From Candidatus Wolfebacteria bacterium (GTDB lineage Bacteria > Patescibacteriota > Minisyncoccia > Phycocordibacterales > NVSU01), in contig NVSU01000001.1 in NCBI GenBank assembly GCA_002401345.1, positions 68,476 through 132,475 of the forward strand: 64,000 bases of DNA, given 5' to 3'. Below the pieces are notes generated by a model. The model was not told the DNA's origin. It did not search any database and saw only the letters and a list, made by a program, of their open reading frames with translations. How positions within the stretch are numbered: position 1 is the stretch's first letter; every line of letters starts with the position of its first letter. The position numbers and the translations under genes were made by a program. Of the stretch, positions 12,653 to 21,158 are shown piece by piece.

Positions 12653-13609
12653 CTATTCTTTTTCGTCGTGTTTAGAAAAATATTTCCTTACCACTACCAA
12701 ATTTTTATCGATGGGCCGTGCGCGTGCTTTAGTTTCTTCATCAGTTTTTCTTAAATCAAAGCTTACCTTCTCGCCTAGTTCATTTTCATATCGAAGGACA
12801 AGCAGGGCAATAATCTTGGCCGGATTTTTAGTAATCTTGAGTACTTCTCCAGTATTATCATCGATAGTAAGACCATCAATATCAGAAGCTAAGTCTATTG
12901 CAGTATCCCCTACTCGATGCCTCATCTGCATGATTGTATCGCTAATCATTTCGTAAAATAATCTGTCATCCTTTAAGATATGTGAATAATCATGTGGCAC
13001 AAATCTACTCGATCGATATTTTTTTAAAATTAACCTGCTCACCACAGCAAATGCGAGACCAATCGCAAGTGTAATAATTCCTATAATAATTAACTGACTT
13101 ACAAAAATACCACCAAATTTTTTTTCTACATCAAATTGAAAAGAAGATGTCGCGGGAACCTCTTGTCCTTCATGTGCAATACTACTCGCTGCCACATAAC
13201 TCCCAGAAGAAAAGTCTTTTGGAATCTGAATAAATTTTACAAAACTTGCAGTCGTCTCAACTGCAACTGTTTCGGTTTCTTGTATTACCGCAATATTTCT
13301 TGCATCAAAAATTTGATACGTAATGGTGACATCAACTCGACGTCCGCTTCCAAAATTTATTAATTTAACAGAGATTGGCAAAAAATCCCCAGGGGCCACA
13401 CGCGATATTAAATTTCCGGTGTCAGTTTTTACTTGCGCTGCAGTATGAACACTCGCGACCAAAGGATTAATAGATATGTCGGAGCTTTGTGTATCAACAA
13501 AGCCGGGAGTTCTCTCGTAATAGGTATCGGCAAAAGGGGTAAATCCAATCACTGCCACTAATAGGATAAGGCACACATATAAGACTGTTGTGATAAATTT
13601 TCGTTTCAT
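12653..13609 (-). CDS. Bitopic membrane protein (N-terminal TM, extracytoplasmic beta-rich domain, second TM, cytoplasmic domain), hypothetical
   Basis: 318 aa with two clear hydrophobic segments. Confidence 0.4.
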   Translation of the reverse strand: MKRKFITTVLYVCLILLVAVIGFTPFADTYYERTPGFVDTQSSDISINPLVASVHTAAQVKTDTGNLISRVAPGDFLPISVKLINFGSGRRVDVTITYQIFDARNIAVIQETETVAVETTASFVKFIQIPKDFSSGSYVAASSIAHEGQEVPATSSFQFDVEKKFGGIFVSQLIIIGIITLAIGLAFAVVSRLILKKYRSSRFVPHDYSHILKDDRLFYEMISDTIMQMRHRVGDTAIDLASDIDGLTIDDNTGEVLKITKNPAKIIALLVLRYENELGEKVSFDLRKTDEETKARARPIDKNLVVVRKYFSKHDEKE

Positions 13610-13616
13610 AATTATG

Positions 13617-14000
13617 TTATCGCTTTTTTCTTCTCCTATAATAAAAAGAGTAGAGAACTATAATAATAAATATGACTGAAATCGCGACGATCGGTACTGA
13701 TACCGCTCGACGGTTTAATTGCTGAGACACTTTTCTAATCTCAATGTCGAATAATGGACGAGCATCGAATTCTCCAACAGCAAACTGCCCTTCTATACAC
13801 CCAGAAGAAGTTGGTATACAAGGAAGGCTGTATCTATCTTCAATGAGTGCATAATACTCAACTGGGGTAGGAGCATATGCGACATTAAGGGTGAATGCAA
13901 AAATAAGAAGAAAAAGAATAGAAAGCGCAGGAAAACGATGATCTTTCATAACATGTTTTATCAGTTTAAATATCTTCATATATGTGTAGTACGCTCCCAT
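13617..14000 (-). CDS. Small membrane protein, hypothetical
   Basis: 127 aa with two hydrophobic segments and an RRRKKR tail. Confidence 0.35.
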   Translation of the reverse strand: MGAYYTYMKIFKLIKHVMKDHRFPALSILFLLIFAFTLNVAYAPTPVEYYALIEDRYSLPCIPTSSGCIEGQFAVGEFDARPLFDIEIRKVSQQLNRRAVSVPIVAISVIFIIIVLYSFYYRRRKKR

Positions 14001-14030: not shown

Positions 14031-15050
14031 TTATCTTTTATTGCGTAGGTACAATCCATAGACAAGAGCTATAAGAATAAGACCTAAAATTATAAATACT
14101 GGTATTACATTTCTTTTGTCCTGAGAATCAGATTCTGTTGGCTCAATTTGAATATCAAATAAAGCTTCTGGTAGTTCATCTACGGCATCAATGATTATTT
14201 CCTCTGTTTCAGTTTGTTCGATACTACATTCTTCGTTTAATTTTGATTGTGTTGCTTCTCCAACAAAACCTGTTCCACGAGAGAATCCTGACGGATCGAG
14301 AATTTCCTCAAAGTATTTTTCTTGAAACAACGTAACCGCTTCCTTTGTTGAAGTACCAAAATTACCATCAATAGATCCAGAATAATGACCAGAAGATTGC
14401 AAACATATTTGAAGATATGCGACATCAGCATTATGATCATTAAATTCTAAATCTGTTTCAAAGCGGTATCCGATTGGTATCTGTGTAGCAATTTCCCTTG
14501 AAGGACTTTCTGTTATCGCAACATTTATCAGGTGTGTTTGAAGTGCCTCTGGTGATAGGCTGGATGTAACCACAACAGGTATTGATGATGTTCCTGAGAG
14601 AATATTTTTATTCCTTGCACTCAAGGACAAAGAATTATCACTCACTTTAATAAGGTCACTTCCCTCATTTTTTGATGAAAACGTTATCGTCCCAAATAGC
14701 GGAGCTAAAGGTGTTCCCCCTGGATATCCTGCAGTTTTTATCAATCTACCATTTACGTTATCTACTAGATCAAAACCCGACTGAGAAAGTGGTATCCAAT
14801 TTGGTCCAAAAGAAAAAAATTGTATACGCACAAGATCAGCTGGATACAATATTTCCACCTTGGTAGTATAATTTTTCACCCCTGCGGAATTTAAAATTAC
14901 ATCAACGGTAAAAGTCTCCTCTTGATGAACCTCAATGCTGGATGGAGAAAAAGAAAGTGCAGCTGCTGCTATATAATGAACTGGCACCAATCCCAAAATA
15001 AAAATGAACGAAAGTAAAATTTTAAAATATCTCATATTTTTTAAACCCAA
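14031..15050 (-). CDS. Secreted cell-surface protein with a cohesin-like domain, a peptidoglycan-binding-like domain and a C-terminal TM anchor
   Basis: Signal peptide. LSFSPSSIEVHQEETFTVDVILNS...ILYPADLVRI...APLFGTITFSSKNEGSDLIKVS resembles a cohesin beta-sandwich. DVAYLQICLQSSGHYSGSIDGNFGTSTKEAVTLFQEKY is PG_binding_1-like. Hydrophobic C-terminus. Confidence 0.5.
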   Translation of the reverse strand: MGLKNMRYFKILLSFIFILGLVPVHYIAAAALSFSPSSIEVHQEETFTVDVILNSAGVKNYTTKVEILYPADLVRIQFFSFGPNWIPLSQSGFDLVDNVNGRLIKTAGYPGGTPLAPLFGTITFSSKNEGSDLIKVSDNSLSLSARNKNILSGTSSIPVVVTSSLSPEALQTHLINVAITESPSREIATQIPIGYRFETDLEFNDHNADVAYLQICLQSSGHYSGSIDGNFGTSTKEAVTLFQEKYFEEILDPSGFSRGTGFVGEATQSKLNEECSIEQTETEEIIIDAVDELPEALFDIQIEPTESDSQDKRNVIPVFIILGLILIALVYGLYLRNKR

Positions 15051-15641
15051 TTAATCATTAATAAGTTAAAATCCAAAATAGAGACAATACTATCACAATC
15101 AAAATCAGCTACATTGTCTACATCAGTGTTTCCCCAATTCACCATCAACGTATTAAAATCTAATATATCAATGGAATCATCGTCATTGGTATCGACATCC
15201 CGACATGTAGATATACTCACACTGGTCCCATAGATAATTGAATCAGAGGCGACTAATGATGATGTTCCTTGTGAATTAAAAAACTTCACATATACTTCTT
15301 TTTCTCCATCACTTTCGGAGAGAGTCCATATCTTTGTTGTTGCATAGACTTCTTGCACAATACCTTGAAATTCACTTGTGTTGGAAATTGACATTTTTTT
15401 AGCAGTTGACCCTCCATTGAGTGTAAGTGTCACTTCGCGAGAAGAAGTGACTGCCTCATTGTCATTAATAACAACAGTAACACCTCCAGTCGGAGCGATA
15501 AATGTATCAAGAAATACACCTCCTCCACCTCCATATGCGAATGCAGATTTAATCCCAAGGAATACTACTCCTTGGGTAAATAAAATGAGTGCTGTCACTA
15601 CAAGTGATAGAAAAAAATATACGTTATTATTCTTTGATCTC
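15041..15641 (-). CDS. Dockerin-domain-containing secreted protein
   Basis: The C-terminus carries two 20-aa Ca-binding dockerin repeats: DTNDDDSIDILDFNTLMVNW and DFDCDSIVSILDFNLLMINW. These fit the dockerin pattern D1-x-N/D3-x-D5-x-x-I/V8-x-x-x-D12-x-x-x-L16. Overlaps the cohesin-like gene by 10 nt. The ORF extension to 15700 is encoded by the repeat element, so the start is more likely MRSKNN at 15641. Confidence 0.6.
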
Positions 15642-15842
15642 ATATAATACAAACACAAAAAAAGCGCCGCACTGTTAATCACAATTACGACGCTTTTCAT
15701 ATTTTGTTAGTTTAATTGTATCAATTCACAGTTTAATTGAAAGATAGAAATGTGGATAACTTTCAACGTACTTTCTACACGACCCAATTAAACTACTGTG
15801 ATAAAATTAGTAGGCGTCATAATTGTGAGTTACTTCAATATT

Positions 15843-17418: not shown

Positions 17419-19368
17419 GTGATTTATTTTACTATTATGGTGCTTTTTTTGTGCCCATTTTACCTCATGGTGAACAAAAATATTCCTACAACTAAAAAAT
17501 CTTCAAAGAGACTATTAAGAAAAAGAAAACGCGTATTCCTTCATCGCTTTGGCGCTATTTTAATTATAGTAATCCCGATCATAGTGATTTCTTTTTTAGG
17601 AATACAGCTTTACCAAGCGTCTGCATACAATGCATTCTATACAACAGACCTTAATCCCGAGACATTCAAAAATGATAGTTTGCCTCTTTATATTAACGAA
17701 GATCTAAATAAAGAAATATTTGGACAAGGTGGGGTGATAGATAATGAATATTATTTCGAAATAATCGGTTCACCTTTCGAATTCATCTGGCAACCAGAAG
17801 AATTTCCAATAAAAAAGGATGTACAAGTCAGCGCTACATTCAAAGGAAATACTTTTTTGGAACTTGGTATTCCCTGTATAGCATGCAACCAAGAAAACTA
17901 CAGATGGGAACCTTTTTATGATCCTCTTAAAAATCCTCCGGCAATAACTACATTATTTGAAAAGAATACAGAAAATAACTATACGAAGAATAGTATTACA
18001 GAAATAAAAAACGAGCTCGTCGGATCGCAGGTTTTTTATGTATATCTAGAAGACAAGATTGATCTTTCTATTACCAAGATTTCATTAAATCCACACAGTG
18101 CTGAAAAAAATATCCTGGTCACTCTAACTAATCTTGAAGGAACCATAGTATGGGAGGAGGAGCTCCCGCATGTTACGCATGAAGAAACATCATTCCGCTT
18201 TGAGGCAGCGCTTGAAGAAAAAGGTATCTATAAACTCTCTATAGTAAATTCTTTAGATGATTTCATTATCACTAACCTTTCTATTAATACACATGCCATT
18301 GCTTCAGCTGATACTATTCATTCAAAGATTACTATAGACACATCTATAGATGAATGGATCACTATCTCAAAACAAATAGAGGGGGAATTTAAAGACAAAA
18401 ACGCTATTAATTTTGTACTTAGAAATCAAATTTTAGAAGAAAAAAAGAAAAAAGAAGACATAATAAGAGAAAGGGGCTTTACGATAGCACAAGAGTTCAA
18501 AGATTTTTTGATTTGGAAAAAAGATAATGCACCAGTGCTTCATTTTGTAGTTCCAGACGAAGAGAGCACACTTCGCGAATTCCTTGCGCTCTCTATTCCT
18601 GAAAAAAGAGTGGTCGAGGAAAATAAAGATCTTGGAATTGTGCGGGACGCACCAGAGGGATTTGCGACAACACCGACAACCGTCAACACCGACTTGCGTG
18701 GTAATCACTCTTTTTATCTTTACCTCTCTGATTCATTTAGTTCCGACATATCAATAAAAGAACTCAATTGGTATGATGGCGCTGATGATATTACGATAAC
18801 GCTCAGTACAAAAAATGAAGGGAGGAAATTATGTCAAAGAACATTTTTTGACGACGGAAATGTCTCAACAGACAAACAAGAACATACAACAACTATTCCC
18901 TTTGAATGTAATAATCTTACTCCCGGAATATATCTTTTATCTTTCGAAGAGTCCTCATCAAAGAAAGATTATGTGATAAACAAACTCACAGTTAACACAA
19001 ATAAAATAATAGTTAAAAACGGTATTCTTAATTTACAACCACTACCACTCTACACTAATGTAACCACCGAAAAAAATATTAAATTCTACTACTGGCATGA
19101 GAACCTAGATCAAGAGATCACATTCACTTCAAAAGGAAAACAATTATCACTTTCATTAACAAAAGAAGATAAGGGTCGAGGAGTTTTTTATCCTTTGACA
19201 GCTGGATTATGGGAAATATATGCCTCTAAAGGTAATGCTGTTATTTCAAATGCTGATTTCGCTTTTTCACCTGAACATTGGTTTATCGTTGAACCGGATT
19301 ATATTGTTACAAAAAAAATAGATGACTCCACAATACTACTTAAAAATATAGCGATCACAGTACTATGA
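17419..19368 (+). CDS. Large membrane-anchored extracytoplasmic protein, hypothetical
   Basis: 649 aa with an N-terminal TM. 4-nt overlap with the next gene. The start may be the internal M at MVNKN. Confidence 0.45.
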   Translation: MIYFTIMVLFLCPFYLMVNKNIPTTKKSSKRLLRKRKRVFLHRFGAILIIVIPIIVISFLGIQLYQASAYNAFYTTDLNPETFKNDSLPLYINEDLNKEIFGQGGVIDNEYYFEIIGSPFEFIWQPEEFPIKKDVQVSATFKGNTFLELGIPCIACNQENYRWEPFYDPLKNPPAITTLFEKNTENNYTKNSITEIKNELVGSQVFYVYLEDKIDLSITKISLNPHSAEKNILVTLTNLEGTIVWEEELPHVTHEETSFRFEAALEEKGIYKLSIVNSLDDFIITNLSINTHAIASADTIHSKITIDTSIDEWITISKQIEGEFKDKNAINFVLRNQILEEKKKKEDIIRERGFTIAQEFKDFLIWKKDNAPVLHFVVPDEESTLREFLALSIPEKRVVEENKDLGIVRDAPEGFATTPTTVNTDLRGNHSFYLYLSDSFSSDISIKELNWYDGADDITITLSTKNEGRKLCQRTFFDDGNVSTDKQEHTTTIPFECNNLTPGIYLLSFEESSSKKDYVINKLTVNTNKIIVKNGILNLQPLPLYTNVTTEKNIKFYYWHENLDQEITFTSKGKQLSLSLTKEDKGRGVFYPLTAGLWEIYASKGNAVISNADFAFSPEHWFIVEPDYIVTKKIDDSTILLKNIAITVL

Positions 19369-21158
19369 TCCGTGAAATGCTTAAAAATAAATGGGGTCCT
19401 ACCCTTTTGGTGTATGTGGCAATCTATCTGATTGTCATTTTTTTAGATGTACGACTTGGTGGCTTTTTGAGCTTTTATTTTAATCCTGTAATTTTTCATT
19501 ATCTTTCACTTATCATTATTATTTCTCTTTTTTATGGTGTCACAAATGAATGGAAAAAAAATACACAGATAGCAAAAAGCCTAAAACATTTCGATGACGT
19601 GGATCAAAAAGAAAACAATCGACTATACGTTATACTATTGCTTATTATTTTTGCCCTGGGAACATTCCTAAGACTCTATCACCTAGGGGAACTTTCTCCT
19701 GCAGGAGATGAATATAGACACCTTCTTGCAATGAAACGTTTTTTAACTGATGGTATATTTGGCTACACTACCTCATCTATCACAACTCTTATTATCACGG
19801 GCGTAAAAAAAATTACCACAAGTGATTCACTATTTTTGCTTCGATTACCGTTTGCGCTTCTCGGATCACTTTCAATTTTACTTTTTTATGCGATCGGGAA
19901 AAAAATAGCAACTAGGCAAGTTGGTTTAATTGCAGCGTATCTTTTCGCATTTCTACCGCTTGCAGTAGGTCTTTCGAACTACATACGTGGGTATGAAATA
20001 GCGCTTTTTGTCTCCCTTGTTGCGATATATTTTCTATTTTCGCCTTATATAAAAAATCTATACTTCAAAATAGTTCTCTTTATTCTTAGTTTAAAGCTTA
20101 TTGCGTACTTAAATTCTGATCAACGTTTTGATGCAATGGTTATGTTCTTTGCTATCTTTGCACTCTTCTATGGAGGTCTCATGTTTATAGACGAGATTAT
20201 AAAAAATAAGCGATGGAATAACATCATCAAAATTACCGCCCCTTTTATTGCATTTGTTGCGGGAATTTCTATCATGCCACTTTTCTTTGAGTTTAGTTTT
20301 TCGAGGACAGTAGAATGGGGGTATCTTTTTTTAATTAATCATAGCTATTCCGATGTAACATGGTATTTTGAGATTATTCCGTTTATTGTGATAATATTTT
20401 TTATTATTAGTGCATTCTTTGCAAAAATTAAAAAGAAAAATGTCATCTATGCACTCTCTTTTACATTGATTTTTATCATCGCCATATTCATGTTTTATTT
20501 TGACGGACCAAAGCGATTTCAAGTACGCTATCTGTATCCCCTCTTTCCGTATTTCATCCTCCTTCTCTCCATTGGTATTTCCTCCGCATATTATATATTC
20601 AAAAGAATATTTAAGGTGGGAATAATAGAATACAGTATTGTCTCTGTCATTGTATTTATTACTATCTTTAGCCCTGTGAAAGCTTTTTATTTCACATTCA
20701 CGGAAACGAACGGAGAACACAGCAAACTAAATCAACTAACCTATTTACCAGACAAAGAACTTATAACATTTGTGAACGCTCACAATATCGATGTATCTAA
20801 AATCATAACCACGACACCGTGGGTTTTTGACTTTTATTATGACCAACCATTTTTAATGACAGGAGAACTTAATCAGTATGTGCACTTTCCCAAAGAATGG
20901 AATTATGAATTTGTGAACAGAACAAAGCTCTATAGCATTAGTGGTTTTCGATCTGAAGAAGAAATCAAAACAATAAATGAAATTATTGATACACGTGATA
21001 TAGAATATCTTATTTTCCATAGTCTGCCACAGCACTCAGATTACAGATATAGCTACGAGTACCCCCTTGAAACTATACGTGACACAGAGTTGGTAACTAT
21101 TATTGGAGAAAATAGTTCATATGGATATTACATATATAAAATCAATAAAGAATCATGA
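19365..21158 (+). CDS. Second GT39/ArnT-like polytopic membrane glycosyltransferase
   Basis: 597 aa. LRLYHLGELSPAGDEYRHLL with many TM helices. An extracytoplasmic C-terminal domain. Confidence 0.6.
   Translation: MIREMLKNKWGPTLLVYVAIYLIVIFLDVRLGGFLSFYFNPVIFHYLSLIIIISLFYGVTNEWKKNTQIAKSLKHFDDVDQKENNRLYVILLLIIFALGTFLRLYHLGELSPAGDEYRHLLAMKRFLTDGIFGYTTSSITTLIITGVKKITTSDSLFLLRLPFALLGSLSILLFYAIGKKIATRQVGLIAAYLFAFLPLAVGLSNYIRGYEIALFVSLVAIYFLFSPYIKNLYFKIVLFILSLKLIAYLNSDQRFDAMVMFFAIFALFYGGLMFIDEIIKNKRWNNIIKITAPFIAFVAGISIMPLFFEFSFSRTVEWGYLFLINHSYSDVTWYFEIIPFIVIIFFIISAFFAKIKKKNVIYALSFTLIFIIAIFMFYFDGPKRFQVRYLYPLFPYFILLLSIGISSAYYIFKRIFKVGIIEYSIVSVIVFITIFSPVKAFYFTFTETNGEHSKLNQLTYLPDKELITFVNAHNIDVSKIITTTPWVFDFYYDQPFLMTGELNQYVHFPKEWNYEFVNRTKLYSISGFRSEEEIKTINEIIDTRDIEYLIFHSLPQHSDYRYSYEYPLETIRDTELVTIIGENSSYGYYIYKINKES

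Follow-up and report, generated by a model that had tools for sequence, protein, structure and literature searches.

A putative cohesin-dockerin pair for surface display in Candidatus Wolfebacteria and the conservation of its two genes in Patescibacteria

Do two adjacent genes of Candidatus Wolfebacteria, designated here P1 and P2, encode a membrane-anchored cohesin and a secreted, dockerin-bearing partner that it holds at the cell surface? The question was raised by a prediction made for a 64-kb stretch of DNA (the window; 64,000 nucleotides, G+C ~35%), which joined such a pair to neighboring protein-glycosylation genes. To our knowledge, surface attachment and host contact in CPR bacteria, which are ultra-small and depend on hosts, are largely unknown beyond type IV pili. 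Cohesins and dockerins outside cellulosomes were noted by Peer et al. (2009; cited in PMC9012536 and PMC10066038), and their partners and roles have mostly stayed unassigned.

The anchor protein P1 and its cohesin module

P1 is identical to the NCBI hypothetical protein COB64_00450 from a Candidatus Wolfebacteria MAG, in which the annotated start is an ATG at 15035 (334 aa). This ATG is a more likely start than the TTG at 15050 because it agrees with the N-termini of the homologues, and it places the beginning of P1 5 nt past the P2 stop codon; the 10-nt overlap between the genes that had been predicted depends on the less likely TTG. The gene and its recognizable parts are as follows.

14031..15050, minus strand: P1, gene for the putative cohesin anchor (mechanically called ORF, 339 aa from TTG 15050)
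14961..15035, minus strand: probable signal peptide, residues 6-30, read from the sequence, with an AlphaFold helix at residues 7-20
14556..14963, minus strand: putative cohesin module, residues 30-165
14313..14432, minus strand: core of a PG_binding_1 (peptidoglycan-binding) domain, residues 207-246, Pfam PF01471
14034..14165, minus strand: predicted membrane anchor, made up of an ALFDI motif, an acidic spacer, a TM helix and an RNKR tail
14151-14165, minus strand: ALFDI motif
14046-14108, minus strand: predicted TM helix, residues 315-335
14034-14045, minus strand: RNKR basic tail, directly after the TM helix

The signal peptide is hydrophobic (MRYFKILLSFIFILGLVPVHYIAAAA), and the N-terminal layout of P1 is common to 117 members of its family. 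PG_binding_1 is recognized by a Pfam scan with an E-value of 7.4e-9 (36.1 bits against a cut-off of 23); AlphaFold confidence in this region is low (pLDDT <50), and the domain is a minority extra, present in 4 of 54 cohesin-family members sampled. The acidic spacer has 16 Asp or Glu in 51 residues, and in most complete members of the family the C-terminus is likewise a hydrophobic helix with a basic tail behind it. There is no SLH match to P1 in the Pfam scan and no LPXTG motif in its tail. The signal peptide, beta-sandwich, PG_binding_1 domain and C-terminal TM segment foreseen for P1 are all present, as judged by AlphaFold, Pfam and the sequence.

Pfam and PDB sequence searches with P1 itself do not identify the sandwich. 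Neither P1 nor the isolated domain matches Pfam Cohesin (PF00963), even at E<=10; searches of PDB sequences, using either a single sequence or a full-length profile, found no cohesin; and when the window proteins are scanned directly against Pfam and NCBIfam, neither Cohesin nor Dockerin is called. The original prediction had named the lack of a significant Pfam cohesin hit as evidence against itself, and formally that is what the window sequence alone gives. Its three Pfam expectations divide accordingly: PG_binding_1 was recovered at 36.1 bits, Cohesin was missing at E<=10, and Dockerin_1 reached an E-value of 1.1.

The relatives of P1 provide evidence of another kind. A word-index homologue search returned two relatives only, and an exhaustive HMMER search was needed to expose the family, in which 747 representative clusters at 50% identity contain the domain at E<=0.001, 590 of them at E<=1e-10. 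The typical member is ~250 aa long and carries the domain directly after the signal peptide. Pfam Cohesin matches 22 of 54 sampled relatives (best E 5.8e-9), many relatives have precomputed PF00963 matches, and one is already named 'cohesin domain-containing protein' at NCBI.

Modeling by AlphaFold2 with a 117-sequence alignment folds residues 30-165 into a beta-sandwich, with pLDDT mostly >90. The sandwich is nine-stranded (jelly-roll), which is the fold expected from the prediction, and it superimposes on solved cohesins. Nearly all of the best 23 Foldseek matches to the P1 model are cohesins (best E 1.5e-8), and the best structural matches include the cohesins of OlpC (4dh2) and OlpA (3ul4); structurally closest are the cohesins of the C. 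perfringens toxin complexes and a non-cellulosomal cohesin of A. fulgidus. Since the structural and family evidence overrides the absent Pfam match, we accept residues 30-165 as a divergent cohesin, an assignment that draws on sequence relatives and model together. The best-conserved stretch of the module, QSGYDLIDNxNGxLIKTAGYPGG (residues 90-112), covers predicted strands 5-6 and, by strand order, would lie on the dockerin-binding sheet of solved complexes.

The dockerin-bearing protein P2

P1 and P2 are both encoded on the minus strand, at the coordinates given in the prediction. The start of P2 is annotated at 15700, giving a protein of 219 aa; the true start is probably M20 at 15643, rather than 15641 as first given, since the alignment of homologues begins near M20. 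The parts of P2 are as follows.

15041..15700, minus strand: P2, gene for a secreted dockerin-bearing protein by prediction (219 aa as annotated; identical to the NCBI protein COB64_00455)
15536..15643, minus strand: probable Sec signal peptide, residues 20-55, MRSKNNN...KSAFA, then YGGGGG
15221..15493, minus strand: Ig/Fn3-like beta-sandwich passenger, residues ~70-160, modeled with pLDDT 94-97
15044..15205, minus strand: putative C-terminal dockerin module, residues 166-219
15134-15193, minus strand: dockerin repeat 1, residues 170-189, DTNDDDSIDILDFNTLMVNW
15047-15106, minus strand: dockerin repeat 2, residues 199-218, DFDCDSIVSILDFNLLMINW

The signal peptide is read from the sequence; it lines up with the homologues in N-region, hydrophobic core and AFA motif, and AlphaFold places a helix at residues 26-42, in the same region. 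No Pfam family matches the Ig-like passenger, and its best Foldseek matches are the GhpA grappling-hook repeats (E 9e-5), the Fn3-like modules of CbhA and the BIg domains of SiiE.

Both of the 20-residue repeats match the calcium-loop and helix pattern of dockerins (D1, N/D3, D5, I/V8, D12, L16), in agreement with the two canonical repeats originally described. The pattern occurs twice in the six frames of the 64-kb window, both times in P2, and not at all in 50 shuffles. Position 9 of repeat 2 is Ser, the residue being Asp in 90% of relatives. The AlphaFold model has one helix after each loop (residues 179-187 and 208-216, pLDDT >90). The match of Dockerin_1 (PF00404) to P2 is below threshold (E 1.1, 9.9 bits, cut-off 22.9), and this weak alignment covers model positions 3-53 of 57; the same model matches 18 of 22 close homologues of P2 (best E 5.4e-8), and a family-specific dockerin HMM scores P2 at 87.6 bits.

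Searches of the PDB with the single P2 sequence or a full-length profile gave weak dockerin matches only. With a profile of the dockerin family alone, the best PDB match is a solved dockerin (5lxv_B, E 4e-5), and the next are calmodulin EF-hands at ~1e-3 together with further dockerins; at the sequence level the profile is barely set apart from EF-hands of the calmodulin type. A Foldseek search with the whole P2 model is dominated by the Ig-like domain, which swamps the dockerin part. On the repeats, the relatives and the model we accept the C-terminus of P2 as a dockerin.

Conservation and genomic context of the pair

Conservation was assessed in a genome set, made up of 68 loci found by scanning a single genome for each GTDB species, another three loci, and the window, and in an independent metagenome set of 80 loci. 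Nearly all of the genome loci are labeled as Patescibacteria, a few having generic or other automatic labels, and the lineages represented are Wolfe-, Nealson-, Yanofsky-, Jorgensen-, Vogel-, Colwell-, Campbell-, Magasanik-, Berkel- and Nomurabacteria, Paceibacterota and others. All ORFs were searched with family HMMs for both modules, and cohesin domains with at least 300 bp of upstream DNA were counted. In 64 of 68 cases in the genome set and in 69 of 69 in the metagenome set, the cohesin domain is preceded on its own strand by a dockerin whose end lies 65-232 bp away. Pooled, 133 of the 137 loci with enough upstream DNA have a C-terminal dockerin upstream of the cohesin, at the end of the gene immediately preceding the cohesin gene, and the pair is in this sense conserved across related genomes as the prediction anticipated. 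No dockerin was found at L059, L068, L069 and L071 despite ample upstream DNA. A like adjacency is seen among NCBI locus tags at KJ575_00330/00335 and ACKKMP_03250/03255. Further relatives are plentiful in metagenomes, with at least 259 in JGI alone.

What precedes the dockerin varies widely. The dockerin lies <=8 residues from the stop codon in 66 of 67 relatives, in ORFs whose lengths span 57-1467 aa (the shortest being truncated at contig ends), and the passenger domains of these proteins are mutually unrelated: they include Peptidase_S8 (subtilase), Beta_helix/NosD right-handed beta-helix, LTD, Big_2/Big_4, Bact_surface_Ig-like and SpaA_2 domains, a common domain of ~100 aa with the motif 'PHQFxG', and Ig-like domains as in P2. 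Despite this variety of cargo, mean identity is 57% among the dockerins and 48% among the cohesins. A dockerin-cohesin fusion ORF at L057 was rejected as an artefact of a masked run of N.

It is unlikely, although the least unlikely of the alternatives, that P1 and P2 share no more than their regulation and act independently at the surface, with the dockerin-like tail serving as a calcium-binding stabilizer or binding some other ligand (a carbohydrate or a host, for example) and the cohesin-like sandwich having a ligand of its own. Such independence would accord with the matches of the dockerin profile to EF-hand proteins at E ~1e-3, and with the many non-cellulosomal dockerins that have no known partner according to the part of PMC9012536 that cites Peer et al. 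(2009). Set against it is the retention of a dockerin directly upstream at 133 of 137 loci while the cargo changes completely, which is hard to explain without a direct relationship between cohesin and dockerin. All of the characterized cohesins known to us bind dockerins, which also speaks against independence.

The identity matrices of cohesins and dockerins are correlated (Mantel r 0.52, a value reached by 0 of 2000 permutations), as would be equally expected from shared descent alone. At individual positions, the Asn at position 14 of the repeats (N183/N212 in P2) is replaced by Val in one or both repeats of 8 of 57 dockerins in the genome set, and the cohesins paired with these V-type dockerins tend to carry T62A, L143F and N149S while being no closer overall to each other than to the rest. 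The metagenome set has no V-type dockerins, and F143 occurs there in three N-type pairs, which are partial counter-examples. This co-variation is suggestive only.

Conservation of both genes together also bears on where the two proteins would meet. A Wolfebacteria cohesin might function in trans as an intercellular adhesin, either binding dockerins on a host or sibling cell or capturing P2 that is already bound to a host, and this would suit the host-dependent, episymbiotic life of CPR bacteria (PMC11623550, PMC9894109), the resemblance of the P2 Ig-like domain to repeats in the grappling hook GhpA and in the adhesin SiiE, and the proposal that dockerin/cohesin pairs mediate cell-cell contacts in ANME consortia (PMC9012536). 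In nearly every case, however, the genes for the two partners are neighbors in one genome, which favors assembly in cis, and enzyme cargo such as the S8 protease and the beta-helix proteins is better suited to display than to bridging; we regard attachment in trans as quite unlikely.

Around the pair, gene order on the one strand is P2, P1, p127, p318, a response regulator, a PAS protein, a 135-aa protein and a histidine kinase, and all gaps in this run are <=30 nt or are replaced by overlaps. Two of these genes follow P1 directly.

13617..14000, minus strand: p127, small membrane protein downstream of P1, with PLFDI, a TM segment and an RRRKKR tail
12653..13609, minus strand: p318, further downstream, with a beta-sandwich, a TM segment and a cytoplasmic domain

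The tail of p127 has the same layout as that of P1 (LFDI motif, TM segment, basic end). It is possibly in one operon with P2 and P1, and no homologue of it was found in the 71 related loci. There are homologues of p318 at L001 and L042, and at L028 a homologue is fused to the cohesin; these occurrences link p318 with the pair in some of the genomes. A promoter scan gave fewer promoter-like matches than the shuffled mean, and a terminator scan gave two terminator-like matches, both inside p318, which equals the chance expectation from shuffles.

On the opposite strand, ~100 bp away from where P2 starts, are genes of the GT-C type, which had been predicted to be GT39 enzymes that could glycosylate the pair. 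PMT_2 is a generic GT-C fold family, and it is the only family to which these genes can be referred: the gene at 15798-17375 matches PMT_2 (PF13231) above cut-off (32.8 bits), the gene at 19365-21158 does so weakly and below cut-off (16.7 bits), and neither matches a GT39-specific model in the Pfam scan. If P1 and P2 were substrates of these divergent enzymes, the locus would be a cassette for display of glycoproteins, as the proximity and the PMT_2 matches allow. Yet no Ser/Thr-rich tract for glycosylation is evident in P1 or P2, and GT-C homologues lie near the pair in 0 of the 71 related loci, as is also true of the genes that lie between and after them (649 aa and 413 aa). Because this synteny is not conserved, the glycosylation link is to be taken as a local coincidence until shown otherwise, and we consider it very unlikely. 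Of the original prediction as a whole, the anchored cohesin and secreted dockerin as a display pair are upheld computationally, and the gene overlap, the GT39 assignment and the link to glycosylation are not.

Family HMMs find one cohesin and one dockerin in the 64-kb window. These are the defining modules of cellulosomes, and the beta-helix cargo of some relatives could be polysaccharide lyases, so that a miniature cellulosome for polysaccharide degradation might be imagined. A cellulosome or scaffoldin was nevertheless rejected, and we rate it as extremely improbable, on the count of one cohesin and one dockerin in 64 kb, the absence of any CBM or glycoside hydrolase in P1 or P2, and a dockerin cargo that is an Ig-like module.

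A model for display and its relation to known systems

The domain identities, folds and topology features of P1 and P2 and the conserved adjacency of their genes lead us to consider it likely that they form a non-cellulosomal cohesin-dockerin pair acting as a surface-display device with a single socket. We infer from these features a physical binding of P1 and P2, its dependence on calcium, a surface location and a biological role, in the following way. P1 would be exported by the Sec pathway and held in the membrane by its C-terminal helix, with the basic tail inside the cell. The order of its parts (cohesin, PG-binding domain, acidic spacer, TM helix, basic tail) agrees with a type I membrane topology in which the cohesin extends out through the wall; PG_binding_1 would grip the wall, and the single cohesin would sit at the distal, N-terminal end. 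P2 would be exported separately, and its two repeats would bind calcium, fold and dock onto the cohesin of P1, probably at the 8-3-6-5 sheet, where dockerins sit in solved complexes, so that the Ig-like module would be held non-covalently at the cell surface. P1 and P2 would then be one instance of a module found across Patescibacteria, with a constant cohesin anchor and, ahead of the dockerin, exchangeable cargo such as adhesin-like repeats, Ig-like modules, beta-helix proteins or a subtilase, and its likely purpose would be to decorate the surface of host-dependent cells with adhesive or degradative proteins. The combination of constant anchor and variable cargo suggests a display device of general use, not a complex dedicated to one pathway.

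Among characterized systems, OlpA and OlpC of C. thermocellum combine a type I cohesin with SLH repeats, and ScaE of R. flavefaciens combines a cohesin with a sortase signal. By analogy these single-cohesin surface anchors appear functionally closest to P1 and P2: in each, one cohesin on a wall-attached protein holds one dockerin protein at the surface, as P1 and P2 are predicted to do. They differ in several respects. The anchor of P1 is a C-terminal TM helix with PG_binding_1, whereas OlpA, OlpC, SdbA and ScaE use SLH repeats or LPXTG; the partner of P1 is encoded directly upstream in a fixed two-gene unit and its cargo is not a CAZyme; and, unlike the cellulosome producers that carry OlpA, OlpC and ScaE, the host belongs to a Patescibacteria lineage with tiny genomes.

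Among the structurally closest cohesins are those of the C. perfringens toxin complexes (GH33 sialidase, 2vo8; GH84C NagJ, 2w1n/2o4e; FIVAR-dockerin partners), in which both modules reside on secreted enzymes and form soluble complexes, whereas P1 is a dedicated membrane anchor for its cohesin. Compared with the non-cellulosomal modules described previously (Peer et al. 2009; A. fulgidus, 2xdh; ANME, PMC9012536), the present family has a lineage-wide, syntenic 1:1 pairing, interchangeable cargo, a uniform membrane anchor and a concrete assignment of partners. Its distinguishing traits are thus the TM anchor (with PG_binding_1 in addition in some members), the strict two-gene unit, the swapping of cargo and the restriction to Patescibacteria. 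In the full-text literature, which our search covered incompletely, we found no description of such a pair in CPR, Patescibacteria or Parcubacteria. The novelty lies in a large family of Patescibacteria cohesins with a conserved upstream dockerin, and above all in the conservation of the pair.

A conserved cohesin anchor with adjacent cargo supplies a defined candidate partner for each dockerin, in a widespread class of orphan modules, and the predicted interaction is easily tested with two small recombinant domains. If it is confirmed, whatever carries the dockerin would constitute a catalogue of CPR surface effectors, and the two domains would offer a compact, orthogonal protein-tethering pair for engineering. 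Tentatively, and with rather less conviction than doubt, we also put forward a modular plug and socket used throughout the CPR, in which a single-pass cohesin anchor always stands beside dockerin cargo swapped by evolution (Ig domains of adhesin type, proteases, beta-helix enzymes), as a principal means by which these episymbionts are armed for attachment to or attack on their hosts; it may comprise more than one specificity class, the N-type and V-type dockerins. If true, such a system would fill the role that sortase and SLH anchoring have in other Gram-positive-type cells. The recurrence of the pair across a whole bacterial radiation suggests a general means of hanging proteins on the cell surface.

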